Part shown: positions 2,891-28,993 of the stretch, piece by piece
Numbering within the stretch: position 1 is the first letter of the stretch
Layout of the letters: the number at the start of each line of letters is the position of its first letter
Source of the DNA: Candidatus Neptunichlamydia sp.
GTDB lineage: Bacteria > Chlamydiota > Chlamydiia > Chlamydiales > Simkaniaceae
Assembly (NCBI GenBank): GCA_965233865.1
Contig: OZ247587.1
Location: 1,440,001-1,504,000 of the forward strand
Reading direction: 5' to 3'
DNA: 64,000 nt
Translations under genes and position numbers: made by a program
Notes under the pieces: model-generated
Seen by the model: the letters and a program-made list of their open reading frames with translations, nothing else
What the model was told of the DNA's origin: nothing
The model's database searches: none

Positions 2891-2918
2891 ATTATATCAT
2901 AAGTGAGTTATTTGACAA
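2891..2918 (-). promoter_or_regulatory. Sigma66/sigma70-type promoter of NTT copy A
   Basis: Minus strand TTGTCA-N16-TATAAT with TG extended -10; near-identical copy at 4733-4760. Confidence 0.65.
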
Positions 2919-3027
2919 TGGGAATTATACCCGAATTTTGGAGATTTTCTAGAGGGAAGAGAAGAGTTTTTTAATTTTAATTTATGAATTATTTTAGCAA
3001 TAGAAAATTGTTGATAGTATAATAAAA

Positions 3028-4611
3028 TCAGGTGGTGGAGAGAGTTTGAGTTGTGGGTTTTTTAGTGACTACCACTTCTTCTTCGATATCAATTTTTTCA
3101 TCCTGTTTTGCGAGGCAATTAAATTGACGGCCAAGGGATCTGGCAGCAACGATCCAGCCAAAGACAACGAGAAGGAGGAAGACAGCAACAAAAGGTGTGC
3201 TGAGGGAAACGCTTCCAAAAACCATGAGAAGGCCCCCGTGGACAATCGATCCCCCTGTTTTTCCAAGGCGAGATCCCACTCCGTCGATAGCGGCTTTCCC
3301 TTTAAACTTTGACTCGGAGCTAAGCGGGATAAATGAAATTTCTTTCGTTGCATCAAATAATGTATATTTGCAGGTCCGCGAAATAATGTTTTGAACGGTT
3401 CCAAAAAGGACTCCGATAGCAAGAGGAGTAAAACCCAGAGCAGTGCTCCATGAGATTAGCGAAGAATTGTCTTTAAAAAGAAGGATGCCAAAGAAAAAGA
3501 TTCCTGTGAGTAGCAATGAAACGGGTGTAATAAGAGCGCTAAAGGTCCATCCCATCTTTCGGATCACATTTCCACTCACAAAGATTGCAACAAAGGTGGA
3601 AAGGAATCCTATCGATTTTACAACACCTCCCATGTATGCGTTGTAATCATTGGGATTTGGATGGAGAATGCTGATCTGGTCTTTCCAAATGATTTCAACC
3701 ATGTTGATGGCAATATTGAACCCGATCACAAGGACGGCTATGCAAAGAAGGTATTTTGATTTTGCAAGGTATGCAAAACTTTTGCGCATTCCCATTTTGA
3801 CTTTTTTTCGTTTGGCATGATTTTTTACATGCTCTTCTTTCATGGCGGGATCGCGGTAAACGACATGGGTGTTATACCATTTGAAAAATCCCATAGTTAG
3901 GAGTCCTGTAAAAATCACAATGGTGGTGACAAGGCCCAAACTTTGTCCCCAAGCATCCGCTCCAAAAATGAAGGAAAGGTCGAATATTTGTCCGGAGACT
4001 AGAATCGCAATTTGTCCGGCAAAGATCGCAGAAATATTGGCTCCGATTCCTAGGATTCCATAGAATCGTTTGGCATCTTTAACGGTCATTACTTCATTGG
4101 CAAAGGCCCAAAAAAGGACCGACATGATGGCTGTTCCCCAAAGTTCAGATATTACGTAGAAAAGGGTAAAAGACCAGTTGCGAAGCATTGCAATCATGGC
4201 CTGACATTTTGGGGCAATGGCTTCTAACTGATCACAAAATGCGTGGGGATGGATAACGTCACGTAGGGGGTAGAGAACGAGAGCAAAGATGGCAAAAAAG
4301 AGTAAAAAGCCCCCAATCATGATGTAAAAAACTCTTTCTTGGGAAAAACGATTGAAAAGACGCGTAAAGAGATAAGTGACCAGGAGAGCCATGGGAAGAA
4401 TCACCCAGATCTTGATAAAGGGGAGTACAGCGGCCCCTGAAGAATTAGCTGTAATCACAAGGGCGTCTTTTGCGGATTTCAGAAGATTGTAGTTAAAGCA
4501 GATCAGAGCGTAGAGAATTAGAAGGGGAACAAATTTTTTCATTTCCCATCGATGAATAGGCCATAGATAGAGGCGCCAACGACTGAACTCTTCTCTATTT
4601 TTGGAGGACAT
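3028..4611 (-). CDS. Nucleotide transport protein (NTT/Tlc family), copy B, tandem paralog
   Basis: Highly similar to 1135-2721 over its length; start placed at the ATG at 4611 (MSSKNREEF) by alignment to copy A and a GGAGGGG SD. Confidence 0.95.
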   Translation of the reverse strand: MSSKNREEFSRWRLYLWPIHRWEMKKFVPLLILYALICFNYNLLKSAKDALVITANSSGAAVLPFIKIWVILPMALLVTYLFTRLFNRFSQERVFYIMIGGFLLFFAIFALVLYPLRDVIHPHAFCDQLEAIAPKCQAMIAMLRNWSFTLFYVISELWGTAIMSVLFWAFANEVMTVKDAKRFYGILGIGANISAIFAGQIAILVSGQIFDLSFIFGADAWGQSLGLVTTIVIFTGLLTMGFFKWYNTHVVYRDPAMKEEHVKNHAKRKKVKMGMRKSFAYLAKSKYLLCIAVLVIGFNIAINMVEIIWKDQISILHPNPNDYNAYMGGVVKSIGFLSTFVAIFVSGNVIRKMGWTFSALITPVSLLLTGIFFFGILLFKDNSSLISWSTALGFTPLAIGVLFGTVQNIISRTCKYTLFDATKEISFIPLSSESKFKGKAAIDGVGSRLGKTGGSIVHGGLLMVFGSVSLSTPFVAVFLLLVVFGWIVAARSLGRQFNCLAKQDEKIDIEEEVVVTKKPTTQTLSTT

Positions 4612-4732
4612 ACCCCTCCAAGCCGAAATTGTGTGATTGTAAAAATTCTCGAGAGGTTGCAAAGGTCTGTTGAGAAAAAAATAATTTTTTTTTTAACATG
4701 ATGTCCCTGCATAAGTGCGTGTATGCCCCGGC

Positions 4733-14339: not shown

Positions 14340-14364
14340 TAAACAAGTCGAGCCTTGGTAGCTT
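14336..14364 (+). promoter_or_regulatory. Candidate promoter for the Rhs gene
   Basis: TTGATA-N17-TAGCTT with TG before the -10, 30 bp upstream of the ATG. Confidence 0.3.
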
Positions 14365-14394
14365 CGTTTATTTCAAAGACTCATTTGAGGCAAT

Positions 14395-17300
14395 ATGCGG
14401 TTTGTCTTAGGTTTAATTTTCTGTTTTCAATCTCTGTTTATCTTTGCCGAAGATTACTCAGGGGATAACGTTGTTCTTTCTACTCCTGGGCAAATTGCAA
14501 CTCTGCATGCTTCGTTAAATGATCTTGTTGGGGGTCTGATCAGTCCTTTGAGTGGGCAGCTTGCTTTAAAAAAAACAGATCTTGTGATTAAAGGGGCTCA
14601 GAGTCTCTACTTAAATCATCTGTACATTCCTCCGTGTATCCCTAGCTCTTTTCCTCAGCACAAAAAACAGCAAACCGAATGGAATCGTTTTTATTTAGCA
14701 CAGCACCTTGTAAGCTCTTATAAAGGGTGGACCTACCTTCCACACCTTTGTCTGCAATACTTTCCAGCTTCTGGCGATATCTATTTATCAGATCCAAGTG
14801 GAGCGACCTTAAATTTTCGTTTATCTGGTAATGGCACGCATCTTGTTTCAGATTCTTATGCGATTAGCAATGTTTCGGGGGACGTGCCGAGTGGAAAAAA
14901 CGATCCAAGAAATACGCGCATTGTTTGCGATAGAGCCTCTGGTACGATCCATGTATCTTCTCCCGATGGGAGCACAAGATTCTATGGAGATAGCTACAGA
15001 AACTCCTCGGGAAGGACGATTTTTCTTTTGTTAAAAGAAAGACTTCCCAATGGAAAAATCCTTCGTTATCTGTATCATAAAAAACAGCTAATTTCTATAG
15101 AAGCAAAAGACCCAGAGGAACGCTTTACCTACGCAAAAATTCATGTTGAAAATGGTCTTACTCTAAGTGGTGGATCAATGGCTTTTCGAGCGTCCTCTGG
15201 CGTCAGTGCGCAGCATGTTCATACCCGCCGCTCTCTTCCCGCTAAACTAAAGGAGAACCCTTTCACTGGAGAGAGTGCAAAGCACTTTGAGTGGGATCCT
15301 ATTTTACCCGCTCTTTTAACCGAGGTAAGCAGTCCTTTTTTTCAAGAAGAAATCCTGTCTTACGACAAGCATTTCTTGCTGACAGATTATTCTGGTAAGG
15401 ACAACCTTTTTATGTGTTCTTATGGAAGTTATGGCTCCCAGAACGAGCATTTTAGGGTACAAACCCTTAGTTTTGCGATGGGCCCGAATGAAACCTTTCA
15501 ACCCGTTTATACTCTCAGCTATGATCCTCCTATTCCTGGTCAGCGTTTTGGCTACACAGTCGTAAATAACCCCGATGGTACATTTACACGTTACAATTTT
15601 TCAGAAAATCTTTTGATAACCTCTATTCAGTGGCTTGACGAAAAAAGTGTTTTGAAAAAACAAAAAACTTTTAATTGGACAGATCAACATTACCTATCTG
15701 CTATCGAAATCAAAGATAGAAATGGTTTAGCTATTCATCGAAAAACGTTTGAGTATGATCCGTTTGGAAATCCTATTGTTGAAACACTCCAAGGAAACCT
15801 TACAGGGAGAGAAGAAGACGAAACTTACATGATCAAGAGAGAGTTTTCTCAAGATGGGAGAAATCTCTTGCTTAAAGAAGTCACTGAAGAAGGGAAAGCC
15901 ACCACCTGGGAATATCTTCCTGAAACAAATCTCGTCACAGCAAAGCTGATCAAAGATCACAATCACATTTTTCAAAGGGAATTTCATATCTACGATGACT
16001 GCCATAACTTAATTCGTGTCATTCATGATGATGGTAGCGGAAAAGATCCTACTGATCTATCAGCAGTGAGTCAAAGAACCATCAAAGAATATCACCTTAG
16101 ACAGAAAGATCCTTTCCTCCATTTACCTGAATGGATAGAGGAGAGGTATTGGGATCAAGGGGAAGAAAAGCTCTTAAGACAGGGACACTTTGTATATGAT
16201 GTCCATGGAAATATCAAAGAAGAGCATGTTTATGGAAGTGATCGTAAATTTGCGTATACCATACGACGATCCTATAATGAGCGTGGAGACGTTCTCTCTG
16301 AAACTAATGCACTTGGAGATCAAGCTTCCTATATTTATGATGCAAAAGGACGCCTCACCTCTAAAAATACCTTTTCTGGAAGGCTCCATACGACCTTTGT
16401 GTATGATAAACAGGGGAGACTGAAACAAAAAGAAGAGGAAGGAGAAGGGCTTAAGCATGTTGATTTATACAAATATGACTTTCTTGATCGTCTGACTGGC
16501 AAGATTGATCCTTTTAAAAACCTCACTTCTTACATGTACGATCCTCTTACAGATCGTGTGATCCAAACAATATTTCCCTGTATTGAATCTATTCAAGGCG
16601 GATCTTCTGTTGTGCAGACCCATGCTAGCCACGATGTTTTGGGTCATTGTCTTACACAAACAGATACGAATGGAAACGTGACAAAGTACAAGCGCAATAT
16701 CTACGGATCTCCTTTTCATAAGATTTACCCCGATGGGGCTAAAGAACATTCCCGCTATACACAAAGTGGACAGTTAGCTTCCCATACAAATCTTGATGGA
16801 TTAACTACCCACTACAAGCGCGATGTTTTAGGACGGACCCTTTCCAAAAAGTATGCGGATCGATCTGGGGAAAGGGTTGCTGAGGAGACGTTTACCTACA
16901 ATGGCTTTAATCTCTTAACCCATACAAACAAAGCAGGACACACAAAAAAATATGTTTATGATGGGGCTGGCCGTAAAATTCGTGAAGAGTATCGTGGTCG
17001 GGTGACTCGATTCACGTATAATCCTCTAGGGTTTTTAGAAAAAACTATCTATGAAAATGGCTTCAACACCCTCATTGTTGCTTATTCAAGGGATCATCTT
17101 GGACGCATTTTAAAAGAGGAAAAACGGGATAGCTCTGGAAACGTTCTGCATAGAAAGGGATATACCTACGATGCAGATGGAAATCAAAAGACCCTTTCAC
17201 GCTTCATCCACGGCAAGGAAGCAGTAGAATCATTTGATTATGATCCCATTGGTCGTATGCTTTCTTATACCGATGCACTCGAGCATGTGACGACTAAGGC

Positions 17301-19512
17301 ATATAACGAAGATTACATGAACGCCATTGGGCAACAAGTTCTCCAGTTGACAACCAGAGACCCCCTCCAAACCTCAAAAGAGACAACTTACGATGCCTTT
17401 GGCAGAGCTATACAGGAAACAACATTTCATCCTCATGGGCAACCCGTTGCTCAATATAAAAACATCTATAACCCATCTGGTAACCTGACTTACCGCATAG
17501 ATGATATCTATCATGGTGTTGACCATATGGGGACTCAAGCGATTCAGCATACCTATAATCCTAGGGGACAAATTGCAAGCACCACCCGAGGATACGGCTC
17601 AAGCAATCCCAGACTGACATCTTATCACTATACTCATGAAGGAAGGCTTGGTACAAAAACAAATCCTGACCAAATTTCATTGGTTTATGAATACGATTCC
17701 TTGGGGTTTTTAGCCTCTATTAACTCTTCAGATCACCAAATTGATCATCGCTTTGAATACGACAAAGAAGGCTACCTTTTGTCTGCAACAGATGAGAGAT
17801 TTGGGCTTACCATCAAACGAGAGTGGGACCCATTTGGAAACATCATCAAGGAGACCTTTCCAAATGGGCTAGCGGTGGAAAAAGACCACGACGCTTTAGA
17901 TAGAGCGACTATTTTTAGGTTGGACGGGGTAGGAGAGATCCATTATAGATATGATCCTCTTTTTCTAAGAGAAGTCACACGATCGTCCGTTGAGGGAATC
18001 ACTCTGTATTCTCATCAATATGATTCCTATGATCAAAATGGAAATATCCTCTCAGAGAAGTGCATCTATGGCTTAGGGTTTATCAGCCATTGCTGGGATC
18101 TTAAAGGGAGAAGGGTGGGGATGACTAGCCCCTATTTAATCGAAACAGCTTTGTATGATCCCTGCGATAACCTGCAGAACAAAGTCACAGATAATCAAAC
18201 ATATGAGTATTCCTACGATGCACTTTATCAACTCACCTCTGAAAAAGGAGAAGAGTTATTTACTGCTCATCAATATGATTCGCTGCGAAACATCCTTGAA
18301 AAAGATGATCAAGTTGTACAAACCAATCCTCTCAATGAACTCCTCTCTATGGGAAAGACTAGGTGTGAGTATGACCTAAATGGGAGGCAGACTCTCAAGC
18401 AATCCCCTGAGGGAGAGTTAGCCTTTACTTACGATCCCCTTAATCGATTGACATCTGCTTCTGGGAAAGATTTCGCGGTGTCTTTTTTATACGACCCCTT
18501 GGGCAGAAGGCTTTCCAAAAAAATAGAAAAGCACGGTTTTTTCGGAACATCAGAGTCTACAGAGCACTACCTATACGACGGAGAAGAAGAAATAGGAGCC
18601 GTGACAGATAGAGGAAAACTCAAAAATCTTAAGGTGCTAGGAGCTTCCTCCTATCAAAGCGTGCGTCAACCGATAGCAATTGAACTAGGCGGACAGGTTT
18701 TTGCCCCCATTTTGGACATGCAAAGTAACGTCAGAAAACTGGTTGATCCGTGCAGAAACATGCATGCAGCTTACCGCTACAGCGCATTTGGTGAGGAGCA
18801 AAAGACTCCCGACCCATCAAATCCTTGGCGTTATTTTTCTAAAAGGATAGATCCCGAAACAGGGTTGATTGACTTTGGAAAGCGTTACTACGACCCGCAG
18901 CTGTCCAGATGGTTAACTCTTGATCCCGCAGGATTCCAAGATAGCATCAACCCCTACCAATATGCCCTGAATAACCCATTTAAATACTATGACCCCAACG
19001 GAGAAACCCTCGTGGGTTTTCTTGGTGGTATTGCTCAGATTTTAGCTGGGGGAGCCATTATGGCTTCTGGTGTAGCCATTGAAGTCGCAACCTTCGGAGG
19101 GTATACGTTTGCTCTGGGATTCCATGAAGCTGCAGGGCTCGCTTTGATGACTACTGGATGTACTCAGGCGATGTATCATGCCAAAGATCTTTCTATGCCC
19201 AGTAGGTCTTCTAAAATCCAACCCATAGCTAGTTGGGACATGTATGAAGGCGTTAGAGACTTTAGTATAGATGCGCATGGAAACCTCATTTATATGTCCA
19301 AAGATAAAAAGCATACTCCGGGGCAGGAAGCACTAAGTGATTTAGTAAAAGAAAAGGGGAAAAAAGGAGTAACAAATGCTGAAGCAGACACACTACTTGA
19401 TTGGGCGGAAGAGTATGATTTTCCACGTAGAGACGATAGAGGTAAACCGATTCATTGGGAAGGAGGTGAACATATTCACTTGGGTCCAAAACATGTTAAA
19501 GTGTACGATTAA
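14395..19512 (+). CDS. Rhs/YD-repeat polymorphic toxin with N-terminal signal peptide and variable C-terminal domain
   Basis: MRFVLGLIFCFQSLFIFA signal-like N-terminus; many YDxxGR repeats; core end RYYDPQLSRWLTLDPAG...NPFKYYDPNG; then a hydrophobic segment and a His-rich tip (HWEGGEHIHLGPKH). Confidence 0.93.
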   Translation: MRFVLGLIFCFQSLFIFAEDYSGDNVVLSTPGQIATLHASLNDLVGGLISPLSGQLALKKTDLVIKGAQSLYLNHLYIPPCIPSSFPQHKKQQTEWNRFYLAQHLVSSYKGWTYLPHLCLQYFPASGDIYLSDPSGATLNFRLSGNGTHLVSDSYAISNVSGDVPSGKNDPRNTRIVCDRASGTIHVSSPDGSTRFYGDSYRNSSGRTIFLLLKERLPNGKILRYLYHKKQLISIEAKDPEERFTYAKIHVENGLTLSGGSMAFRASSGVSAQHVHTRRSLPAKLKENPFTGESAKHFEWDPILPALLTEVSSPFFQEEILSYDKHFLLTDYSGKDNLFMCSYGSYGSQNEHFRVQTLSFAMGPNETFQPVYTLSYDPPIPGQRFGYTVVNNPDGTFTRYNFSENLLITSIQWLDEKSVLKKQKTFNWTDQHYLSAIEIKDRNGLAIHRKTFEYDPFGNPIVETLQGNLTGREEDETYMIKREFSQDGRNLLLKEVTEEGKATTWEYLPETNLVTAKLIKDHNHIFQREFHIYDDCHNLIRVIHDDGSGKDPTDLSAVSQRTIKEYHLRQKDPFLHLPEWIEERYWDQGEEKLLRQGHFVYDVHGNIKEEHVYGSDRKFAYTIRRSYNERGDVLSETNALGDQASYIYDAKGRLTSKNTFSGRLHTTFVYDKQGRLKQKEEEGEGLKHVDLYKYDFLDRLTGKIDPFKNLTSYMYDPLTDRVIQTIFPCIESIQGGSSVVQTHASHDVLGHCLTQTDTNGNVTKYKRNIYGSPFHKIYPDGAKEHSRYTQSGQLASHTNLDGLTTHYKRDVLGRTLSKKYADRSGERVAEETFTYNGFNLLTHTNKAGHTKKYVYDGAGRKIREEYRGRVTRFTYNPLGFLEKTIYENGFNTLIVAYSRDHLGRILKEEKRDSSGNVLHRKGYTYDADGNQKTLSRFIHGKEAVESFDYDPIGRMLSYTDALEHVTTKAYNEDYMNAIGQQVLQLTTRDPLQTSKETTYDAFGRAIQETTFHPHGQPVAQYKNIYNPSGNLTYRIDDIYHGVDHMGTQAIQHTYNPRGQIASTTRGYGSSNPRLTSYHYTHEGRLGTKTNPDQISLVYEYDSLGFLASINSSDHQIDHRFEYDKEGYLLSATDERFGLTIKREWDPFGNIIKETFPNGLAVEKDHDALDRATIFRLDGVGEIHYRYDPLFLREVTRSSVEGITLYSHQYDSYDQNGNILSEKCIYGLGFISHCWDLKGRRVGMTSPYLIETALYDPCDNLQNKVTDNQTYEYSYDALYQLTSEKGEELFTAHQYDSLRNILEKDDQVVQTNPLNELLSMGKTRCEYDLNGRQTLKQSPEGELAFTYDPLNRLTSASGKDFAVSFLYDPLGRRLSKKIEKHGFFGTSESTEHYLYDGEEEIGAVTDRGKLKNLKVLGASSYQSVRQPIAIELGGQVFAPILDMQSNVRKLVDPCRNMHAAYRYSAFGEEQKTPDPSNPWRYFSKRIDPETGLIDFGKRYYDPQLSRWLTLDPAGFQDSINPYQYALNNPFKYYDPNGETLVGFLGGIAQILAGGAIMASGVAIEVATFGGYTFALGFHEAAGLALMTTGCTQAMYHAKDLSMPSRSSKIQPIASWDMYEGVRDFSIDAHGNLIYMSKDKKHTPGQEALSDLVKEKGKKGVTNAEADTLLDWAEEYDFPRRDDRGKPIHWEGGEHIHLGPKHVKVYD
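19050..19199 (+). repeat. 150-bp anchor repeat, copy 1 (inside Rhs, after DPNG)
   Basis: Identical to 20101-20250; degenerate copy at about 21104-21249. Confidence 0.95.
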
Positions 19513-19520
19513 AGGATTTG

Positions 19521-20096
19521 ATGATGCATAGTCTTGTTTTAATAGAAAAGTACCTTTCGTCTAGTTTGTTTTGGTCTAACTTAGTAAGGGATAAAAGAAT
19601 TACAGAACTCTCCGTTGAGCAAGTGTTAGACAAGTATCAAGGCTTCGAAGGGGATTTTGTTTGTTATTTTCAAATTAATAAAAATATCGATCTATTTCAA
19701 ATAAAAATTAGCGAGTGTCTAAGATTGAAATCTCTAGGAGGGTGCCTTTTATTACATGTTATTTCTAGTCCAGATTCTATGCCTTCTTTGTTAGAAAATC
19801 AAACGACTAAAATAGGATATGATGTTGGAGTTTGTGATGAAGAAAAGACCGTTTATTCTTCCATCTTTCATGAAATATTGTTTGGACATCTTGATGAATT
19901 GGTCGATTACAAAAGAATATTAAACGAAAACTTACTGTTTCCTGATAGATCTTTAGCTGAGAAATACGTTAAACTGCACGACCAGATGTCAGCTGAAGGG
20001 GAAAGTGTAGAGGATTACGAAAAAATGACGATTTACGAGGTTTGGAAACAAAAAGATTTAACCAGTTCGCCGTATACTAAGATTAGTAAATCATAA
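19521..20096 (+). CDS. Putative immunity protein for the Rhs C-terminal toxin
   Basis: Starts within 10 bp of the Rhs stop, AT-rich, no recognisable housekeeping motif. Confidence 0.7.
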   Translation: MMHSLVLIEKYLSSSLFWSNLVRDKRITELSVEQVLDKYQGFEGDFVCYFQINKNIDLFQIKISECLRLKSLGGCLLLHVISSPDSMPSLLENQTTKIGYDVGVCDEEKTVYSSIFHEILFGHLDELVDYKRILNENLLFPDRSLAEKYVKLHDQMSAEGESVEDYEKMTIYEVWKQKDLTSSPYTKISKS

Positions 20097-20100
20097 GCTA

Positions 20101-20250
20101 GGGAGCCATTATGGCTTCTGGTGTAGCCATTGAAGTCGCAACCTTCGGAGGGTATACGTTTGCTCTGGGATTCCATGAAGCTGCAGGGCTCGCTTTGATG
20201 ACTACTGGATGTACTCAGGCGATGTATCATGCCAAAGATCTTTCTATGCC
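20101..20250 (+). repeat. 150-bp anchor repeat, copy 2
   Basis: Exact match to 19050-19199. Confidence 0.95.
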
Positions 20251-20617
20251 GAATGAAAGGCCAAGAACTAGCTCAACGGACTGGAATGCTTTTAAATCAG
20301 ATGTTAAAGAACAGAAGAAGCGTGGTAATACAAATCCTTTTAATGGAGCTGTTGACGAAGAGGTCATTGTTGTTGATCCTCAGGGGAACGCAATTCCAGT
20401 GAAAGAGGGGAATTGGTTAGGAGGATCTAAAGATGGAGTTTGGATTGAAGAAAAGTGTCCAGGCGCAAATCCAAGAGGAGAAAAAACAGGGCTACGTAAA
20501 GATAGTGGACATGACCCGGGTCCAAAGCATCCTAGTGATCCAAGGCCTTGGGAACCACACGCCCATGTTCCAGGAGCCACAAACCCAGATGGAACACCTT
20601 GGTTACCAGTTAAATAA
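20111..20617 (+). CDS. Orphan Rhs C-terminal toxin cassette (CT2)
   Basis: First 47 aa identical to the Rhs pre-toxin segment, then an unrelated domain ending PHAHVPGATNPDGTPWLPVK; GGGAG 5 nt before the ATG. Confidence 0.85.
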   Translation: MASGVAIEVATFGGYTFALGFHEAAGLALMTTGCTQAMYHAKDLSMPNERPRTSSTDWNAFKSDVKEQKKRGNTNPFNGAVDEEVIVVDPQGNAIPVKEGNWLGGSKDGVWIEEKCPGANPRGEKTGLRKDSGHDPGPKHPSDPRPWEPHAHVPGATNPDGTPWLPVK

Positions 20618-20642
20618 CATAAACCATTAAGTATTTGAGTAT

Positions 20643-21104
20643 ATGATAAATAAAACTGAGAATAGTAGATTTGATTATGGAGATGCTGTAAAAATTAAGG
20701 CAACAGCTCCTGAAAAATTTTATCCAGGTCAGGTTGGAAACATTTGTGGAATGGATAAAATTACAGTTGATGCAGAAGCTCAAGAACTTTTTTCTAAAAT
20801 CGGAGATTGGGCATATACAGTTGAACTTCCGAATGGTTCTTCTATTGAAGTAGCAGGGTGTTATTTAGAAGTGGACTCTGATAGACTAAAGTACAAGATA
20901 AGAGATCAAGTAATTATAAAAAAAGATTTTTCTGAAAAAAATAAAATTACAGAGATTGTATCTGTTATTGATTATCATAAAATTTCTGGAAAATCACTAG
21001 CAAAAAAATTTAATCTAAAAATAGGGTGTTTCATATATGTTGTTGAAAATCAGTCTGGCCAAATATCATTGATTCCTGAATACCTTATAGAGAAAAAATA
21101 TTAG
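20643..21104 (+). CDS. Putative immunity protein for CT2, made of two tandem small beta-rich repeats
   Basis: Follows CT2; halves RFDYGDAVKIK..YTVE..YLE and KYKIRDQVIIK..YVVE..YLIE align. Confidence 0.72.
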   Translation: MINKTENSRFDYGDAVKIKATAPEKFYPGQVGNICGMDKITVDAEAQELFSKIGDWAYTVELPNGSSIEVAGCYLEVDSDRLKYKIRDQVIIKKDFSEKNKITEIVSVIDYHKISGKSLAKKFNLKIGCFIYVVENQSGQISLIPEYLIEKKY

Positions 21105-21453
21105 GTTTTCTTGGTGGTATTGCTCAGATGAAGTCGCAACCTTTGGAAAGTATACGTTTGCTCTGGGATTCCATGAAGCTGCAGGGCTCGCTTTGGTGAC
21201 TACTGGATGTACTCAGGCGATGTTATCATGCCAAAGATCTTTCTATGCCGAACGAAAGGCCAAGAACTAGCTCAACGGGCTGGAATGCTTTTAAATCAGA
21301 TGTTAAAGAACAGAAGAAGCGTGGTAATACAAACCTTTTAATGGAGCTGTTGACGAAGAGGTCATTGTTGTTGATCCTCAGGGGAACGCAATTCCAGTGA
21401 AAGAGGGGAATTGGTTAGGAGGATCTAAAGATGGAGTTTGGATTGAAGAAAAG
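21104..21453 (+). pseudogene. Decayed copy of the anchor repeat plus the 5' part of CT2
   Basis: Matches 19015-19040, then lacks 19041-19080, then follows the repeat and CT2 (to about 20455) with substitutions and 1-nt indels. Confidence 0.88.
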
Positions 21454-21665
21454 CATTAGGGTGTACAAATGGAGGTTTAAAGTGGAGAGATGTTAAACCA
21501 ATAATAGAATATTATTCATCTAAAATGGACATACCGGTAGAAATTCTTGAGCCATCTGATCTTAAGATAGATAAAAAAACCACTACTAATAAAAAAAGAG
21601 TTTTCGAGGATTCACCCTTAGGTCCCCTAGTAAGGCCTAAGAAAAGATCTCGTCCTGAGTCATAG
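21453..21665 (+). pseudogene. 3' fragment of a macrodomain (DarG/Poa1p-like) gene
   Basis: Open frame ALGCTNGGLKWRDVKPIIEYY...PKKRSRPES* with an in-frame stop just upstream and no start; matches the LGCGxGGLxW macrodomain motif. Confidence 0.65.
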
Positions 21666-21733
21666 CTAAATAAAGGTCGAGTCTTTTTAGATGAATATAG
21701 CTTAAATACAAAAGCCATTTTTTCGAAAAGTTC

Positions 21734-22606
21734 TTATTTTTTTATAAGAGAGAGTATTTCTTCTTCAGAAAGGTCTGTTGCTTTAGAAATTGTTGTAGGA
21801 TCTAGCCCTTGCTTTACAAGCGCATTGGCAATTCTTAGTTGTTCTTCTTTAATACCTTCCTCACGACCTTTCTCTTCGTATTTTTTCAAAGTATTTGCTT
21901 CAATTCTGAGCCATTTGAGCTTTCCTTCATAGATTTCACGCTCTTCATCAGAGAAGTTCATTACATTGAGAACATTGATAGCTTTTTTAACAGGAGAATC
22001 ATCCAAGGATGGCGATAGTTTAGCTTTGCTAAGTAGGTCGCGCCTTAAAAGAAATGTAGACCAGAGGTCTAGGACATTTTGAATTTTTGAGCCAATATCT
22101 TCAAATTCTTTTCCTAGGCTGTCGCTGAATTTCTTCAGTTCTATTGTATGAAGTTCTAGCTCTTTGAAGTAGTGGATTCCGGTTTCTTTTTCTGTGATAT
22201 GGAAAGCGTTATGATATTTTCCTGAGTCTAAGATGGAAGTGAAGTTCAAGATATGGATTCCGATGACTTTTTCAAGAGAGCCATAGTCATCTCTTTCTTT
22301 TAGTTGCTCTGCATAGAGCTTTGCCCAGTAGTATAGAGCTCTTTTGTCATAATCGGCTTCATCGGTAATTTGGATTTCGATATTAAATTTCTTGCCGTGA
22401 TCACCTTCAGCCTTGATATCTAAGATGGAGAGCTTGTCACTTTTAAAATTTTTCTGATTATAGGGGTTGAGCAGGGTCACATCAACAACATGATCTTCTT
22501 CTCCTACAATAGAATTAATCAAGGAGATCAGAAGATCTTTGTTTTCTTCTGTGCCAAATATTTTCTTAAAGGCTATATCAACGCGCGGATTAATTTTTTC
22601 CGTCAT
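21734..22606 (-). CDS. Rpn family recombination-promoting nuclease / PD-(D/E)XK putative transposase
   Basis: INPRVDIAFKKIFG, LDIKA, NIEIQ, RALYYWAKLY, C-terminal EKGREEG..IA..L..GL...IS..T.LS tail. Confidence 0.92.
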   Translation of the reverse strand: MTEKINPRVDIAFKKIFGTEENKDLLISLINSIVGEEDHVVDVTLLNPYNQKNFKSDKLSILDIKAEGDHGKKFNIEIQITDEADYDKRALYYWAKLYAEQLKERDDYGSLEKVIGIHILNFTSILDSGKYHNAFHITEKETGIHYFKELELHTIELKKFSDSLGKEFEDIGSKIQNVLDLWSTFLLRRDLLSKAKLSPSLDDSPVKKAINVLNVMNFSDEEREIYEGKLKWLRIEANTLKKYEEKGREEGIKEEQLRIANALVKQGLDPTTISKATDLSEEEILSLIKK

Positions 22607-22694
22607 TAGATTCTACTCCATACCATCTGGATCCATTGTACTCTCTATATAAAAACCATTCAATGGTTTTTATTTATCTTAATGACTCCCTGAA

Positions 22695-22856
22695 TTAGTA
22701 ATCATAATCTTTCCACGTCATGAAATTCTCCCTTGTGGATTTCAGAAGCTCTATGGGGACTGTTGATTCATAGTCGCTTTTTTCACTACTCAATATCACA
22801 TCAGTAGGCCCTTCTGTTGTATCGGATCTTTCCAAGTTTATATTATCACTAGGCAT
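22695..22856 (-). CDS. Small hypothetical protein, 53 aa (MPSDNINLERSDTTEGP...KDYDY)
   Basis: Open frame between the Phd-like gene and rpn, same strand; no motif. Confidence 0.25.
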   Translation of the reverse strand: MPSDNINLERSDTTEGPTDVILSSEKSDYESTVPIELLKSTRENFMTWKDYDY

Positions 22857-22923
22857 ATATATGTCACTTAATTATTTGATAACTTCAGTATAAAGAAAAA
22901 AATTGTTCTGCGTCACTCAAAAA

Positions 22924-23145
22924 TTATCGGTCTATCCCTTCTAAAACCACGTAGTCTTCCAAAGGAACAATAGCAACCTCTGCACCGTTAAAATTATAGA
23001 GGATGCGCTCTCCTTCAAAGGCGACCTGATTAAACATTTCTTGCTCTTCTTCTTTCGATTGTAGCACGATCCCTTCATCTTCAGTCTCGTGTCCTTCGTT
23101 GAGCTCCCATCCTAATGGGTATTGCACAGCTTCTAAAGATTTCAT
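22924..23145 (-). CDS. Small acidic protein with a Phd/YefM antitoxin-like segment
   Basis: Strong AAGGAG SD; FNQVAFEGERILYNFNGAEVAIVPLEDY resembles the Phd/YefM pattern VNRVAxxGERIxxxRxGxxxAxxVPxED. Confidence 0.55.
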   Translation of the reverse strand: MKSLEAVQYPLGWELNEGHETEDEGIVLQSKEEEQEMFNQVAFEGERILYNFNGAEVAIVPLEDYVVLEGIDR

Positions 23146-23176
23146 ATATTCTCCTTAATGGATGTTTTTGTTGGGC

Positions 23177-26100
23177 TTACAAACTCAAGTCAAACCCACG
23201 TTGGTGTTGTTCTTCTTCAATGCCAAGTTGAATATCTAATTTCTCTTCCAAATCTTCAACTTCCTGCCAGTCACCTCTCACCGCTTCTCCATCTTGCCAG
23301 TCTTCAAACTCAAATTCATTTGCTGCAGCAAAATCATAGTCCGTTGTCTGAACGTGAAGGCTATTTTGATTTTCTATCTGTTCTAAGGTATCCAGGCGTT
23401 CCATCTCCGAGCCGGAGACTAATAACTTGCGATCTTCTAGTGCGGATAGATCTAACACTTTTTCTGATGCAACATCTTGAGAATCTAAAGACAAAAACAC
23501 AAAACCCTCTTGCTTGCAGTTTTTATTTGCTTCAGCTGCTGTCTCTTGAGAAGTGCATAGCACGACGATGGCTCGTTCATTCTCAGGAGTGAAGATGTTT
23601 TCGATATTTTTGATTGGCTCTAACCCCTCAGACTGACAATGCTCTTGGTAAGCTGCTAGTTTCTCTTGCATGATGCCCTGTCTAAGCACTCTTTCTTGCT
23701 CAATCTGCTTGTACTGATCGAGTTCTTTTAGGGCCTCCTTGGATAGGTTGAGGCCATAGATAGGATCTTCAAGCTTTGATGCCCCATATTCAGGGGTCTC
23801 AGACTTTTCGGTTGAAGTGTTTTGATAGAAATCATGGATATCGGATTTGTCAGCTCTATTTTCCCGACGATCGTCTAGTATCTCCTGGATGTTTGCCTTT
23901 AACTCTCTTCCAAATGCTTTAACACGAGTCCACCTAGTACCATATTCTCTTGCTTTCTCAAGATCGCGATCAAATGTCTCTTTCTCGGCTTGTTTCTGCA
24001 GATCATATTCGTTTTGGAAGTAGAGTGTGGATTCCTTAGAGGTGTCTTTGGAGCATTGTTTTTGCAATGGTCCAAAACCTCCGCACTCTTCTTTATCAAT
24101 GTAAACACTGACAGTTTCTTTGTGCCTGGACGTGGCGACATAGGAAGTTTGTTTTCCATTGAGCGAGTTGTGGAGAACGTAGGTGTCCTCCACCGTTCTC
24201 CCTTGAGATCGAAAAGTAGTTGTTGCGTACCCTAATTGCCAAGAGCCGTATTCTTTTGGATCAAAGGATACAATCTTGGTGTATTTGGAGCTGTCTTTTC
24301 CCTCCTGATCAAGCTTTACGACAAAACGGTCTTCTTCAGCTTTAACAAGTTCGCCCTTTAGACCGTTTGTTACACCAATAGCGCGGTCATTCTTCCTGAA
24401 TTCAATGAGATCACCCTCAGAAACACGCAGCTCTCCAAACATTGTCTTGCAGGAGTATTCTTGCTCTTTCAGCTCTCCTTTAACCATGCGGACGTCGTGA
24501 GCCGCTTGATTGAGTACATGGACTTCTCTATTGGTGGTCGCAAGAATTAGGGATTTGTCATAGGACTTAGATGTGTCGAGGTAATGAGAAAAAGACCAAT
24601 CGACTATGAGCTTTTCCATTGCGCTAGCTTTGTCTCTTTCGAAGTTCAGGCAGTTTTCCTTGCTCAACCCTCTTAATGCGGCTTCAATATCTCCTTGTGC
24701 AAAGCTTTGCGTTATAGATCGTTGCTCTTGAGAGCTTTGGCGTTGTATATAGTGCAGTTTCGAAGCGTCATATTTTTCTGCCAGAACCTGAAACATCCCT
24801 CCTCTATCAACTGAGGGCATTTGGGAAGAGTCTCCGGAAAGGATGAGCTTGGCTTTGTGGGCGTGAGCTACCCTACAGAGTTCATTAAGCGCCTGATTCC
24901 CAAGTTTTCCAGCTTCATCGACGATCCATAGCTCTTTGGGCTTGATCTCTCTGTGGCCATGCTCTTGAGCGTACAAAAATCTAGGTACATTCTCAGCATT
25001 AAAGCCTTTTTCTTTGAGAAGATTAGCGGTTGCGTTATCAGGACCAAACCCTCGTACTCTGATTCCTTTTGCTTCGTAAGACTTTTTTAACGCCTCTAGA
25101 ACGTGAGATTTCCCTGTACCAGCATAACCTTCCAATACATATAAACCTTCTCTTCCAGAGAGTGTTTTAAAAGCTTGGAGTTGTTCTGGACTCAGATAGC
25201 TTGAGAATTTCTCTAGGTGCTTTTCTCGAAACTTGGCATGTTCTACATCATTGATCTTCTCGCTCCGTCTTAAGATTTGCTTTTCTTCTTCGAGGACTTC
25301 GATGGTGGTGAATTTTCCGGCATCTCTTAGTGTCCTACTTAAAACTGAATGATTCTTGCCGAGTTTCCCAATTTGGAGCTTCACTATTTCTGTTTGCTTC
25401 CAAAATAGATCACGCACTTCTTCCAGCTTCTCATGAGGAGTATGTTTAGCCATGAACCGCTCTACATCTTGGACTTGCCATACTGCTTTCTGGTTGGAAA
25501 TTGCCTTTAAGATTTTAGATGGATCACTTGCATCAATGACGTTTTGCTTTTGAATTTCCGCGTGTCGCTCTAACATTTCTAGGCAGTTACCTCTTAATCT
25601 TACTGCTCCTAGATGCTCTTGAGGATTGAGTGACTTGGGATCAACTCTGAGGTCCAAACCAAGATCTTTAAAGTAGTCGTTTTGTATCTTTGTCCAAACC
25701 TCTCCCCAACGAGTATTAGAGATCTCTTTTTGCAAGGATCTATCTTTCAAATAGTGAAGACTTTCTCCATCTTCTGAAAATGTTCTGGTGGGCACTAGTA
25801 TATGGGCATGCCAGTTATGATCTTCTTTATCATCAGGGCTGTGAATGGCGTAATGCGCAGCAAGCCCCTTATCTACAAACTTTTGAGAAAATCTTTGTGT
25901 TAAAACAATACGGTCTTCCTCCGTGATTACTTTGTCATCAGGAAGGGCAATGACTAGTTCCATTCCTACTTGTGAATTGTGTTGCTTCTCGATTTGCTCG
26001 GCAGCATTCCACAGGATTTCAGGATTTAAAAACTTTTCATCTGCGACCTCAGGAAGCATGATCTTTTTTGCTAATGGAGCCTCTCTACTGGAATAGTCAT

Positions 26101-26230
26101 AAAGCTTTCTATCTTGAAACTTCGTACCTTCGAATTCTAATTTAGAGCGATCAATATAGGCAGATTTGTGACAGATATTTTGCCCTTTAGAGCGTTGTAC
26201 GAATTCGTTCCTAGCTTGTCCTATTGCCAT
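23177..26230 (-). CDS. traA: Ti-type conjugative relaxase-helicase TraA (MobA/MobL relaxase plus RecD-like helicase)
   Basis: SAYIDR, LWNAAEQIEK, ELVIALP, HNWHAHI (3H) relaxase motifs; GYAGTGKS, IVDEAG, GDSSQ, SQGRTV, YVATSRH helicase motifs. Confidence 0.92.
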   Translation of the reverse strand: MAIGQARNEFVQRSKGQNICHKSAYIDRSKLEFEGTKFQDRKLYDYSSREAPLAKKIMLPEVADEKFLNPEILWNAAEQIEKQHNSQVGMELVIALPDDKVITEEDRIVLTQRFSQKFVDKGLAAHYAIHSPDDKEDHNWHAHILVPTRTFSEDGESLHYLKDRSLQKEISNTRWGEVWTKIQNDYFKDLGLDLRVDPKSLNPQEHLGAVRLRGNCLEMLERHAEIQKQNVIDASDPSKILKAISNQKAVWQVQDVERFMAKHTPHEKLEEVRDLFWKQTEIVKLQIGKLGKNHSVLSRTLRDAGKFTTIEVLEEEKQILRRSEKINDVEHAKFREKHLEKFSSYLSPEQLQAFKTLSGREGLYVLEGYAGTGKSHVLEALKKSYEAKGIRVRGFGPDNATANLLKEKGFNAENVPRFLYAQEHGHREIKPKELWIVDEAGKLGNQALNELCRVAHAHKAKLILSGDSSQMPSVDRGGMFQVLAEKYDASKLHYIQRQSSQEQRSITQSFAQGDIEAALRGLSKENCLNFERDKASAMEKLIVDWSFSHYLDTSKSYDKSLILATTNREVHVLNQAAHDVRMVKGELKEQEYSCKTMFGELRVSEGDLIEFRKNDRAIGVTNGLKGELVKAEEDRFVVKLDQEGKDSSKYTKIVSFDPKEYGSWQLGYATTTFRSQGRTVEDTYVLHNSLNGKQTSYVATSRHKETVSVYIDKEECGGFGPLQKQCSKDTSKESTLYFQNEYDLQKQAEKETFDRDLEKAREYGTRWTRVKAFGRELKANIQEILDDRRENRADKSDIHDFYQNTSTEKSETPEYGASKLEDPIYGLNLSKEALKELDQYKQIEQERVLRQGIMQEKLAAYQEHCQSEGLEPIKNIENIFTPENERAIVVLCTSQETAAEANKNCKQEGFVFLSLDSQDVASEKVLDLSALEDRKLLVSGSEMERLDTLEQIENQNSLHVQTTDYDFAAANEFEFEDWQDGEAVRGDWQEVEDLEEKLDIQLGIEEEQHQRGFDLSL

Positions 26231-26473
26231 TTTACTTTTCTTATTCCTATGTCTTTATCTAACGTTATCAAAACAGACTTTTTGTTTTTCTGCAAGTTTT
26301 AACAAAAGCAAGCGCCTGTAAGGTGCATATTGCGTATGACTCTAATCTGGCGATTAATAGCCATAACGCTTTAACTCTAATTTAGGTAAGCTTAAAAATA
26401 CAACCGCAAGGCAAAAGTCCTTTTCGTTAAAGGACACTTTGGTTACGATGTATAGAAAATAGAAAGTTGTTAT
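26231..26473. other. Candidate oriT region between divergent traA and traD operon
   Basis: Positional, as in MOBQ traA/traCD loci; imperfect inverted repeat GTCCTTT-TCGTT-AAAGGAC at 26417-26435; only a weak nic-like match near 26320-26336. Confidence 0.35.
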
Positions 26474-26725
26474 ATGGAAAAACATTTTGATGCCTCAAGA
26501 AGAGAGGTGGTAGAGTTGCTTCAAAGGAAAAGACGGTATGGCAGATCTTTAACGGATAATGAATTGAGAGGGCTCTTGAAAGTGGAAAACTTTGAAAAAG
26601 AAAACGGCATGTCCTCGGAAGCTCTGCTGAGCACCTCGGCATGTCCAGGCGCTTCGCTTTCTATTGAAGAGGGAAATGTGGTTGTTTATCCAAAAATGGG
26701 AGACTGTGAAAATGAACGAACTTGA
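26474..26725 (+). CDS. Hypothetical protein, possible relaxosome accessory factor
   Basis: 83-aa ORF divergent from traA, overlapping the traD start. Confidence 0.5.
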   Translation: MEKHFDASRREVVELLQRKRRYGRSLTDNELRGLLKVENFEKENGMSSEALLSTSACPGASLSIEEGNVVVYPKMGDCENERT

Positions 26726-27194
26726 AAAGAAGAAGGAAGCCCTTAAGCTAAAAAAGTCTCGGATTGAGCATCAGGAAAGGCTTCTGAAGCTTAAAGAGCG
26801 TAAAAACCGCACGAGGCTTCTGATTGAAGTCGGTGGGGTTGCTTCGAAAGCCGGAATTGATCATTTGAACACCAACACTCTTTTGGGGGCTTTTCTTGAG
26901 ATTAAGGAGAAGGAACAAGAGGAGGGGACGCTTAAACGGTGGACCAAAAAAGGTGCTGAGGCTCTTGATAGGGATAAAAAGAAAAATGGGGAGCCGTTGA
27001 TTGTGACGTTTGCTGAGGAACCGGAAAAGAAGATTAAGACGGAGATCAGGCAGGCGGGACTGCGATGGAACCGTTTTAGAAAGGAGTGGCAAGGGTTTGC
27101 TAAAAAAGCGCAGTTAGAAAAGCTTCTTAAGGGGGTTGACCATCAGGTGCAAGCTGTAGGGAGTCAATCGTCTAAAAGTGGAAAGGAGGGGTGA
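26712..27194 (+). CDS. traD: Conjugal transfer protein TraD (Ti-type, relaxosome accessory)
   Basis: ERKNRTRLLIEVGGVASKAG..LLGAFL motif and C-terminal GLRWNRFRKEWQG; start set at ATG 26712 after GGGAG. Confidence 0.85.
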   Translation: MNELEKKKEALKLKKSRIEHQERLLKLKERKNRTRLLIEVGGVASKAGIDHLNTNTLLGAFLEIKEKEQEEGTLKRWTKKGAEALDRDKKKNGEPLIVTFAEEPEKKIKTEIRQAGLRWNRFRKEWQGFAKKAQLEKLLKGVDHQVQAVGSQSSKSGKEG

Positions 27195-27196
27195 AT

Positions 27197-27313
27197 ATGG
27201 CTTCTGATAACGAGATGCTAGCGTTTTTGAAAAGGTCTTTGGAAAACCCTCACTTTGATCAACTGGAGCTTTGTCTTTGGGCGGTTGAGGGCGATCAGTT
27301 GGTGTTTGTTTAG
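27197..27313 (+). CDS. Small hypothetical protein, 38 aa (MASDNEMLAFLKRSLENPHFDQLELCLWAVEGDQLVFV)
   Basis: AGGAGG SD; stop TAG directly abuts the dsbB ATG (TAGATG). Confidence 0.45.
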   Translation: MASDNEMLAFLKRSLENPHFDQLELCLWAVEGDQLVFV

Positions 27314-27793
27314 ATGGAAACCTCCAAGCGCATCTTTTTGAACAGATGGTTTTTAGCGATGATTGCTATTGGATCGGTTGCTCTAGCTTGTTCCATATCA
27401 GCGGTGCATGTTTTCCATTTAAAACCTTGTGTGATGTGCAATCTCCAGAGGATCCTCTTTGCTCTTTTGATTGTGAATTCGGGATTTGGGCTCTTGAGCT
27501 CTTATAAGCAAGGGTTTTTTAAGGTAACGCGCGGATGTTTAGCTTTGGGGATTGTCCTTGGGGTGGGACATTTTTTGATGCAGATGGGTGCTGTGCCAGA
27601 TTTTTGTACTTCAAAGCGGGGTTTTGATACAGCTGAGGAATTTTCAAGGATGCTAAAAACTTCAAAATGTTCTGATATAGCTTGGTCGATTTTTGGTGTG
27701 CCGGTTTCTCTATTAAATGCGATGCTTCATGGAGGTGTTTTGGGGGTGGGGTGTCGTTTCAGCTTGAATAAAAGTCTGATGGGAGCCTTATGA
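27314..27793 (+). CDS. dsbB: Disulfide bond formation protein B family
   Basis: KPCVMCNLQR motif, four hydrophobic segments, second Cys pair, WSIFGVPVS. Confidence 0.85.
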   Translation: METSKRIFLNRWFLAMIAIGSVALACSISAVHVFHLKPCVMCNLQRILFALLIVNSGFGLLSSYKQGFFKVTRGCLALGIVLGVGHFLMQMGAVPDFCTSKRGFDTAEEFSRMLKTSKCSDIAWSIFGVPVSLLNAMLHGGVLGVGCRFSLNKSLMGAL

Positions 27794-27823
27794 TGGAAAC
27801 ACAAGTGGTTGTGAACAAGTTTT

Positions 27824-28993
27824 ATGAAGTCAACAAGAGGTAATATGAGCTTCAGATTGTTAAATATTTCGGTATATATTCGTCCTACTTTCTGGATTTT
27901 TATGATTTTTTTTACGAGGGTTTACCAAAACCCTTCGGTTTATAGCTTGGTGTTGGGATTGGTTCTTGTGGTAAGCCTTTTGGTACATGAATTTGGGCAT
28001 GCCATGACGGCTCGGTATTATGGTACTCAGCCGACTGTGATTCTTGAAGCCTTTGGAGGAAGAGCAGAGTACGAAGGAAGGGGCATTAGTCCTAAGCAGG
28101 CTTTTTATATCACGCTGAACGGCCCTCTATTCGAAAGTCTTCTCATTCCTTTGTCTTACTTTTTGCTAAAATCGGGTATTTTTGATGGGCATTCATATAT
28201 CCAGTATTTCTTATACGCAACCATGCGCTTCAATATCCTTTGGTGTTTATTGAATCTCATTCCCGTTTTTCCACTTGATGGAGCACACCTAGTGCAGTAC
28301 TTTCTTGAGAAAAAATTTGGAGATAAGGGAGTTCAATCAACGCATATTCTTGGATTGGCATGTGTCATTTTGATTGCCCCTTATCTTTACTTCAAAGGTT
28401 TTTTCTTTTTTGGAACGCTCCTTCTTATCTTTGGGTACCGAAACTTTCGATTGCTTAAACAGGGCAAGATTTTATCAGGGCAAGACAGTCCATTTAAGCG
28501 GTATCTTCAGGGGGTGGAGGCTTTGAAGAACAATGATCTTGAAAGTGCAAAGACTCTTTTAAAGAAGCTTCTTAAGTCCAAAGATAGCCAAATAAAAACC
28601 TCTTCTGCGGAAGCACTAGCCCAGGTATATTACCAAGAACAAGACAAGAATAAGGCGTACCAGATTTTACTAAAAACCAACCATAACTGCCTAAAAGAGG
28701 GAAAGTATCTACTGTGTAAATTGGCTTTTGAAAGGGAGGATTATGCTCTTGTAGCCAATTATTCTAGAGATGTTTATAAACAAAACCCCTCTTTTGAAGT
28801 TGCGATCCTGAATTCTAAAGCTTTTGCTCACCTCAACAAAGTCAATCTTTCTGTGGGTTGGATGGAAACAGCTTGCCAATTTGGGGATGAGTATAGAAAA
28901 AAGGTACAAGATCACTTGCGCGATTCTGATTATGACTCAGTGAAGACACATGCACATTTTAAGAGTTTTATAGAGAAGCTTGATCCAGTTTAG
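27824..28993 (+). CDS. Site-2 (M50) metalloprotease with a C-terminal TPR-like region
   Basis: HEFGH, ITLNGP, NLIPVFPLDG; helical-repeat C-terminus. Confidence 0.85.
   Translation: MKSTRGNMSFRLLNISVYIRPTFWIFMIFFTRVYQNPSVYSLVLGLVLVVSLLVHEFGHAMTARYYGTQPTVILEAFGGRAEYEGRGISPKQAFYITLNGPLFESLLIPLSYFLLKSGIFDGHSYIQYFLYATMRFNILWCLLNLIPVFPLDGAHLVQYFLEKKFGDKGVQSTHILGLACVILIAPYLYFKGFFFFGTLLLIFGYRNFRLLKQGKILSGQDSPFKRYLQGVEALKNNDLESAKTLLKKLLKSKDSQIKTSSAEALAQVYYQEQDKNKAYQILLKTNHNCLKEGKYLLCKLAFEREDYALVANYSRDVYKQNPSFEVAILNSKAFAHLNKVNLSVGWMETACQFGDEYRKKVQDHLRDSDYDSVKTHAHFKSFIEKLDPV

Follow-up and report, generated by a model that had tools for sequence, protein, structure and literature searches.

The window analysed here is a 64,000-nucleotide (nt) stretch of DNA from Candidatus Neptunichlamydia sp., covering positions 1,440,001–1,504,000 of its genome, which is 96% complete and consists of one contig with 1,830,388 bases. 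It contains a Rhs gene followed by several small genes, which we interpret as a Rhs-type polymorphic toxin locus on a mobilisable island of an environmental chlamydia, with other bacteria as its probable and likeliest target. The Rhs gene itself (14395–19512, plus strand) is a single open reading frame (ORF) of 1705 amino acids (aa), with matches to RHS_repeat (Pfam PF05593, E 5.8e-46), YD_repeat_2x (NCBIfam TIGR01643, E 4.9e-33) and Rhs_assc_core (TIGR03696, aa 1462–1536, 80.4 bits against a cut-off of 32.5). The last of these, the Rhs-associated core domain (18778–19002, plus strand), ends in a DPNG motif; a DPAG motif can also be read in the translation at the core end, and DPNG is the expected self-cleavage site, cleavage being predicted from the behaviour of the family.

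Only two stretches of the Rhs protein reach a Kyte-Doolittle mean of at least 1.6 over 15 residues, and these start at aa 1–5 and aa 1538–1550. The first is a signal-like N-terminus (aa 1–20; 14395–14454, plus strand) composed of Met-Arg, about 15 hydrophobic residues and an Ala before Glu-Asp, with a peak mean of 2.43 at aa 3. The second, at about aa 1538–1565, immediately follows DPNG and opens a hydrophobic, glycine-rich pre-toxin linker (aa 1538–1602; 19006–19200, plus strand), which has homologues elsewhere. The linker leads into the C-terminal tip, here called tip1 (aa 1603–1705, 103 aa; 19201–19509, plus strand), whose conserved domain spans roughly the last 70 aa according to family alignments and an AlphaFold2 (AF2) model. 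In the ESM Atlas, aa 20–440 fall among ordinary Rhs/DUF6531 N-terminal clusters (scores 0.91–0.95, to be read as leads only), so that no special delivery domain is suggested.

Downstream of the Rhs gene lies imm1 (19524–20096, plus strand), the candidate immunity gene for tip1 by adjacency and low GC content; it encodes 190 aa from an ATG at 19524, within an ORF running from 19518, and this start agrees with that of its homologues. It is followed by an orphan cassette of 168 aa (20111–20617, plus strand), which, judging from its translation and from a family alignment, comprises the last 47 residues of the linker and then a second tip, tip2. Next to it, imm2 (20643–21104, plus strand; 153 aa) is the candidate immunity gene for tip2, assigned from the same downstream position in relatives. 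Both partner genes are poor in GC, with fractions of 0.33–0.34 over imm1 and 0.30–0.33 over imm2 versus 0.40–0.47 in the Rhs body. The main gene and the orphan share a 150-nt recombination handle with 100% identity, copy 1 lying in the main gene (19050–19199, plus strand) and copy 2 at the start of the orphan (20101–20250, plus strand). On the 5' side of the handle the two are unrelated, and on its 3' side they carry differing tips; their homology is confined to the linker and does not include the Rhs core.

A third element (21099–21453, plus strand), recognised by repeat comparison, contains the linker and the first part of tip2. It is 97–99% identical to 20225–20455 and repeats the start of the linker (21090–21129 against 19001–19040, 85%), but it lacks 40 nt, has gained one base and lost another (+1 and -1), and the match ends at 21453. 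Its spacing of 998–999 nt from the orphan shows that the linker-tip2-imm2 unit was duplicated in tandem and that the copy was then broken and truncated; the locus therefore holds two tip types, not three. An earlier sequence-only reading of this DNA had described the Rhs protein with its signal-like N-terminus, core-end motifs and C-terminal tip, the AT-rich gene after it and the orphan cassette with a partner gene, and all of these could be located, including the low GC content. The part that the orphan shares with the main gene is the linker and not the Rhs core, and the "decayed third cassette" of that reading is the broken copy of the tip2 cassette and not a third toxin type.

Both tips fall outside the catalogued families. 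No Pfam family matched either tip or any member of its alignment; with loose thresholds, the two tips, imm1, imm2 and the linker produced rows at chance level (such as DUF4225, E 2.3), and searches of PDB sequences with the tip1, tip2 and imm1 profiles returned no best match below E 0.35. Searching 1.84 billion proteins with the tip1 profile yielded 695 representatives at E<=0.001, including 160 at E<=1e-10, and in most of the best 150 of these 695 the match is C-terminal. When 43 longer hits were compared with Pfam, 19 had an RHS, RHS_repeat or YD-shell domain, in one case accompanied by SpvB and FG-GAP, three carried PT-HINT, one YidC_periplas, and 20 had no family. The tip2 profile was found in 234 proteins of 7999 scored, mainly with RHS/YD-shell domains and twice with PT-HINT, and some of these proteins are labelled Verrucomicrobiota, Bryobacterales, Pseudomonadota or Alphaproteobacteria. 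Since both families occur on RHS/YD-shell as well as PT-HINT carriers, both tips appear to be genuine and widespread polymorphic-toxin ends, bona fide members of this class that no Pfam model covers.

The tip1 family conserves a Glu, a Trp and four His residues, with H85, H91 and H98 among the invariant or near-invariant positions of a 56-row alignment, and the tip2 family conserves Arg, Asp and His residues; both tips of this locus retain the residues of their family. With low confidence, this pattern may point to hydrolases, perhaps metal-dependent, with nucleic acid as the likeliest target. The AF2 model of tip1 has a predicted local distance difference test (pLDDT) score of 77.3, rising to about 90 over the conserved last 65 residues, and a helix-helix-strand-strand-strand order. 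The sequence-only reading had looked to fold comparison of both tips for an answer, and this check gave no significant PDB match for either: the best Foldseek hit was E 2.4 for tip1 and E 0.13 (PDB) for tip2, and the wide VIA search peaked at Z 4.1 (glyoxalase-like) and Z 2.4, respectively. In a comparison with the fold of RelE/ParE-like (BECR) RNases, in which two helices precede a sheet of three or four strands, the tip1 model shows two helices and three strands, and no RelE/ParE chain was among its matches. In the ESM Atlas, tip1 scored at best 0.83, and clusters named Ntox33, MafB and Ntox37 reached 0.78–0.79, again as leads only. Kinship between tip1 and tip2 was considered and rejected (hhalign probability 0.4%). 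Membership of tip2 in Ntox37 (PF15535) was not supported: this profile gave no hit at E<=10 or E<=1 with tip2 or any of the 13 family members; compared with chlamydial Ntox37 tips, the hhalign probability was 0.9% (E 0.059), with only a few motifs in similar order.

The partner genes are likewise unclassified. For imm1, 231 homologues were found, and none of the best 120 contains a Pfam domain; six of the seven with a named source are chlamydial (Chlamydiota, Chlamydiales, Rhabdochlamydiaceae, Parachlamydiaceae) and the seventh is from Anaerolineae. A predicted complex of tip1 aa 30–103 with imm1 scored 0.00, which speaks neither for nor against binding. In imm2, a domain of about 75 residues occurs twice in tandem, where relatives have it once, and both halves align to the same place in the homologues of three loci (L030, L031, L038). 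At L031, the imm2-like domain is fused to a longer C-terminal part, in a frame of 231 aa. Neither imm1 nor imm2 has a signal-like start, which indicates a cytoplasmic site of action.

Whether tips and partners stay together was followed in about 300 genomes of the order, sampled from a larger set, with pairing judged by a local tblastn search of the loci retrieved from them. The main Rhs has a match in 35 of 41 sampled genomes, which makes such proteins common in this order, and few of the matches are full-length: 54% identity in G007, 44% in G028 and 38% in G037. tip1 occurs in 12 of 301 genomes and in none of the 11 other genomes of the same genus; tip2 occurs in 16 of 300 genomes (one further genome was unscored), and one same-genus genome has a 20-residue remnant of it only. 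In other families, the top identities are 82% for tip1 and 67% for tip2. An imm1 homologue directly 3' of tip1 was found in seven of nine foreign loci, and a single-domain imm2 homologue directly 3' of tip2 in all 11. In G278 the arrangement is reversed: a 1741-aa frame carries tip2, and tip1 is found on a fragment of 342 aa. The toxin, immunity and orphan layout proposed by the sequence-only reading is thus borne out by adjacency in foreign loci, and the comparison of tips among related chlamydiae that it had suggested also shows variation. In G007, which belongs to the same genus (locus L006), the linker is kept at 86% identity and the tip is replaced by one that matches Ntox37 (E 8e-4; two other relatives gave E 6e-3 and 5e-7). 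It is followed by a different gene of about 215 aa and then by a 133-aa gene 46% identical to imm2, without a preceding tip2. Linker homologues stand ahead of tip1 (L018, L020), of tip2 (L029, L030, L031) and of the Ntox37-type tip of L006, so the linker acts as a common joint. Ntox37-type tips were found in 36 of 301 genomes of the order. In the present genome, an Ntox37-like remnant with a stop codon lies at 904932–905030 of the whole contig (E 5.1e-5, below the family cut-off).

Variation was also visible among close strains. Contigs from three runs of one study cover the stretch almost whole (shares of 0.84–0.94), but these runs are possibly the source sample and not independent support. 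Contigs from two runs of a second study cover 17000–19065 with 54 differing letters in 2066 and 19170–20130 with seven in 961; in them the 150-nt handle is unchanged and has about three times the depth of its neighbours. Past 20491–20503, these contigs run on unlike the window or swap 452 nt for 445 other letters. Parts of the stretch that they do not cover were not counted as absent. As they are assemblies from mixed samples, they offer a hint, not proof, that closely related strains retain the main tip and imm1 but diverge in the orphan part. A search of genome contigs with the whole Rhs gave 33 pattern matches, none of which was confirmed.

Alternatively, the locus could be a non-functional relic in decay. 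One copy of the tip2 cassette is frameshifted and truncated, a transposase-like gene adjoins this broken copy, and no run recorded as RNA was among the sequencing runs listed. Nevertheless, the 5.1-kilobase (kb) main frame is intact, as are imm1, imm2 and the orphan; both tips retain the conserved residues of their families, and the contigs of the second study carry the Rhs core, tip1 and imm1 at about 97–99% identity, which together leave a defunct locus very improbable.

The whole locus rides on an insertion of 14.65 kb (14340–28989) that contains five further genes. In five of five same-genus genomes examined, ispF abuts the cysJ-like gene, and the segment between them in the window is for this reason taken as inserted. 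Next to the cassettes lies an Rpn/PDDEXK_2 transposase-like gene (21734–22606, minus strand; TIGR01784, E 1.8e-50; PF12784, E 1.5e-58), followed by a TraA-type relaxase/helicase (23177–26230, minus strand; TIGR02768, E 2.5e-128, below its cut-off) with MobA_MobL and AAA_30 domains and by a TraD-like small conjugal-transfer protein (26664–27194, plus strand; PF06412, E 3e-15). The last two genes are DsbB-like (27314–27793, plus strand; PF02600, E 7.6e-16) and Peptidase_M50-like (27824–28993, plus strand; PF02163, E 8.9e-14); they travel with the Rhs gene and the relaxase, and might serve the toxin in the periplasm, for example in disulfide formation or processing. No common word of at least 9 bases was present as a direct repeat in the windows compared at the island borders. 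An excisionase-type DNA-binding ORF (34225–34683; TIGR01764, E 3.2e-12) lies outside the island and is kept at the site in all five same-genus genomes, and it is consequently not part of the insertion. The neighbours of the locus are housekeeping genes such as ispF and murA. The gene content thus places the Rhs locus on what is by its sequence a mobilisable genomic island, which the sequence-only reading had overlooked.

A location of this kind could also mean that the toxin-immunity pairs are addiction or stabilising cargo, whose main effect would be to maintain the island in the population or to exclude cells from which it has been lost, and not to arm the bacterium. In favour of such a role, the insertion around the locus also contains genes for a TraA relaxase, TraD and a PDDEXK transposase-like protein, its site is empty in five of five same-genus genomes, and both tips and their partner genes are restricted to this single site, with no other copy in the genome. 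An exported shell of 1705 aa would, however, be a costly addiction module, and the same tips are found on large Rhs genes in relatives (where mobile genes were not looked for). We therefore consider stabilising cargo improbable as the main function; it also overlaps with the antibacterial reading, because killing kin that lack the island is itself interbacterial competition.

Several genes of the window fit a chlamydia: a tail-specific protease (Tsp) of the CT441 type (803 bits against a cut-off of 700), a SecDF fusion and two nucleoside triphosphate/diphosphate (NTP/NDP) exchange transporters, which are typical of energy-parasitic intracellular bacteria. The two transporter genes are adjacent (1135–2721 and 3028–4662, minus strand; TIGR00769, E about 1e-157 each). 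Close homologues are chlamydial by source name, in agreement with the intracellular chlamydia proposed by the sequence-only reading. A type VI secretion system (T6SS) was not found: PAAR (PF05488), VipB/TssC (PF05943) and VgrG (TIGR03361) each had no match in the 1.83-Mb genome, while control genomes were positive. PAAR, SpvB and TcdB domains were likewise absent from the 1705-aa Rhs in a Pfam scan, and no chaperone gene lies near it. Neither a PAAR/VgrG link nor a genomic T6SS, the features of a T6SS-delivered Rhs effector, is hence present, and the earlier statement that the protein lacks PAAR and has no VgrG nearby was upheld by both the protein scan and the whole-genome search. GspD-type secretins are present in the genome, and all 11 long Rhs frames of relatives (L006–L016) have a hydrophobic N-terminus, with best 15-residue means of 1.89–2.77. 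The Sec-dependent, non-T6SS route put forward earlier is accordingly sustained as far as the missing T6SS genes and the signal-like N-terminus go; from the latter we infer, on good grounds, that the Rhs protein is exported by Sec.

The protein might alternatively be a host-directed effector, passing via Sec and then a type II secretion system (T2SS) or vesicles into the inclusion or the host cytosol, where its tip would act on the eukaryotic host, while the downstream genes would protect the producer before export. Several points weigh against the reading preferred here, and some of them favour the host as a target. The organism shows the marks of obligate intracellular life, and intracellular bacteria mostly aim such toxins at their hosts, according to the available part of Zhang et al. 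2012 (PMC3482391). In Waddlia, a signal-peptide "rhs family protein" was detected by mass spectrometry in the host-cytosol fraction, as described in the accessible text of Kebbi-Beghdadi et al. 2020 (PMC7143554). The immunity genes possibly serve for producer protection only, and two of nine tip1 loci have no imm1 match (L024 is a remnant that contains a stop, and the tip at L026 diverges most, with 40% identity). The signal peptide was judged by hydropathy only, and two steps, crossing the outer membrane and entering a target, are conjectural. Moreover, the tip2 model is of middling quality (pLDDT 68.5, with an all-beta core), and no activity can be assigned to either tip from Pfam, PDB sequence or fold matches.

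On the other hand, arrays of orphan tips with immunity genes, and the toxin-less imm2-like gene of G007, are hard to fit to self-protection alone. Both tip families occur on RHS and PT-HINT carriers in free-living phyla, and the patchily distributed tips move together with their respective partners. In Waddlia, the protein detected is another Rhs paralogue, and its fraction contained abundant contaminants by its authors' own account, at least in the text available (PMC7143554). A host target is on balance unlikely, and among bacteria, rival chlamydial strains or co-resident symbionts are favoured here, with moderate confidence, as the targets of the toxin.

A possible mode of action can be outlined under this antibacterial interpretation. 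The precursor would cross the inner membrane by Sec, and its YD-repeat shell would enclose the C-terminal piece, which the protease of the core itself may cut at DPxG. The shell would then leave the cell, or sit on its surface, by a non-T6SS route, for example T2SS or vesicles, and the hydrophobic glycine-rich linker could aid the small tip across the target membrane. Inside, tip1 (with its Glu and four His) and tip2 (with Arg, Asp and His) might be hydrolases whose substrate, in all likelihood nucleic acid, lies in the cytoplasm, while imm1 and imm2, which lack export signals, would neutralise their own tip in the cytoplasm of the producer. Recombination across the handle would delete 1051 nt and fuse tip2 and imm2 to the full-length gene, and the weapon would thereby be switched.

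Several known systems share parts of this design. Enterobacterial Rhs loci with orphan rhs-CT/rhsI cassettes were reportedly described by Poole and co-workers in 2011. Like the present locus, they have a YD-repeat shell, a DPxG-type core end, a variable tip, an immunity gene downstream and orphan pairs homologous to the main gene. They differ in being tied to the T6SS by PAAR and VgrG, whereas here a T6SS is absent and the N-terminus is signal-like, and in sharing homology at the core end instead of in a hydrophobic linker past the core. TcB/TcC of Tc toxins likewise form a YD-repeat cocoon with a self-cleaved C-terminal toxin, but no SpvB or TcdB domain was found in the main Rhs, and it is accompanied by candidate immunity genes and orphans, which Tc loci are not known to have. 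WapA of Bacillus subtilis is a Sec-exported Rhs/YD toxin. The same description applies to WapA of Streptococcus suis in the available text (PMC12704120). Both are signal-peptide Rhs toxins that have an immunity gene and work without a T6SS, and in this they resemble the chlamydial protein with its signal-like N-terminus and candidate immunity gene, but they are Gram-positive and wall-anchored, while the chlamydial protein would have to pass an outer membrane and showed no wall-binding domain. In prePAAR effectors, the toxin is accompanied by a hydrophobic segment that is proposed to aid target-membrane crossing, according to the portion of the source available (PMC7773334). The present linker is comparable in accompanying a toxin, but their segment is N-terminal and used with a chaperone and the T6SS, while here it lies between cleavage site and tip, with no chaperone gene nearby.

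For chlamydiae themselves, the accessible part of Zhang et al. 2012 (PMC3482391) lists toxin domains, Ntox37 among them, that are combined with RHS repeats and with a "T2SS" (Sec-type) route, as well as Imm32, and describes immunity genes as scarce in intracellular bacteria. The present locus agrees with these toxins, as far as that text goes, in phylum, RHS-repeat carrier and predicted Sec-type route class, and differs from them in that its tips match neither Ntox37 nor another Pfam toxin family, its partners match no Pfam immunity family, and their pairing is conserved. The layout that the sequence-only reading took as defining an interbacterial toxin locus is present, but it is less novel than implied, because RHS toxins with a Sec-type route in chlamydiae are already contained in that catalogue (PMC3482391). 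In the available text of two further papers, the clusters predicted as outer-membrane proteins of chlamydiae include an RHS family (Heinz et al. 2009, PMC2811131), and Rhs-like orthogroups are reported missing from Chlamydiaceae (Taylor-Brown et al. 2018, PMC6171736). A literature search that did not extend to subscription journals and supplements retrieved, among the matches listed, no paper from 2013 on joining polymorphic toxins with chlamydial genera, and nothing on Rhs in chlamydiae or Rhabdochlamydia beyond the four papers cited.

The kind of system is thus already known, chlamydial RHS toxins having been catalogued in 2012, and the gain lies in detail and scope rather than in principle: what this locus adds are two unclassified tip families with their partners, its location on an island and the finding that tips and partners are paired widely among chlamydiae. 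A wider proposal, tentative and somewhat doubtful at present, is that environmental chlamydiae fight one another or co-symbionts with Sec-exported Rhs shells that do without a T6SS, and that a self-inserting, glycine-rich linker, moving along with the cleaved tip, brings the two unclassified toxin domains into the cytoplasm of the rival, weapon and antidote spreading together on islands. Obligate intracellular bacteria are usually credited with little need for antibacterial weapons. If the proposal were true, interbacterial warfare would be a regular part of obligate intracellular life, contrary to the view of toxins with hardly any immunity genes. Tips that keep their protectors across many chlamydial families and swap scaffolds, and a locus that travels on an island, jointly point to ongoing conflict among chlamydiae or with co-symbionts. 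In any case, two small unclassified toxin domains with their partners are offered for biochemistry, and the locus provides a test case for Rhs delivery without a T6SS.

Other Rhs proteins in the order follow a different pattern. Many chlamydial Rhs frames (L009–L011, L013–L016) end in tips of about 250 aa with His-Ser-x-Gly motifs that resemble alpha/beta-hydrolases, followed by a gene of about 185 aa with a hydrophobic or lipoprotein-like start; Pfam gave no significant match for tip or gene. Two further Rhs loci are present in the genome studied here (coordinates of the whole contig). At 1819242–1830388 and 1–3016, an Rhs of 2803 aa, which starts in a signal-like manner and has a lipase-like tip with a Cys-His-Ser-Gly-Gly motif, precedes an array of at least six units, each consisting of an orphan tip fragment of about 135 aa and a gene of about 185 aa with a lipoprotein-type signal; this array spans the contig ends if the contig is circular. 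A third Rhs (291634–296421, minus strand; 1596 aa) ends in a tip of this lipase-like type as well, lacks a signal-like N-terminus, and is followed by a gene of about 190 aa with a lipoprotein-like start. As the signal-like start differs among the three Rhs proteins of this genome, they may use different export routes.

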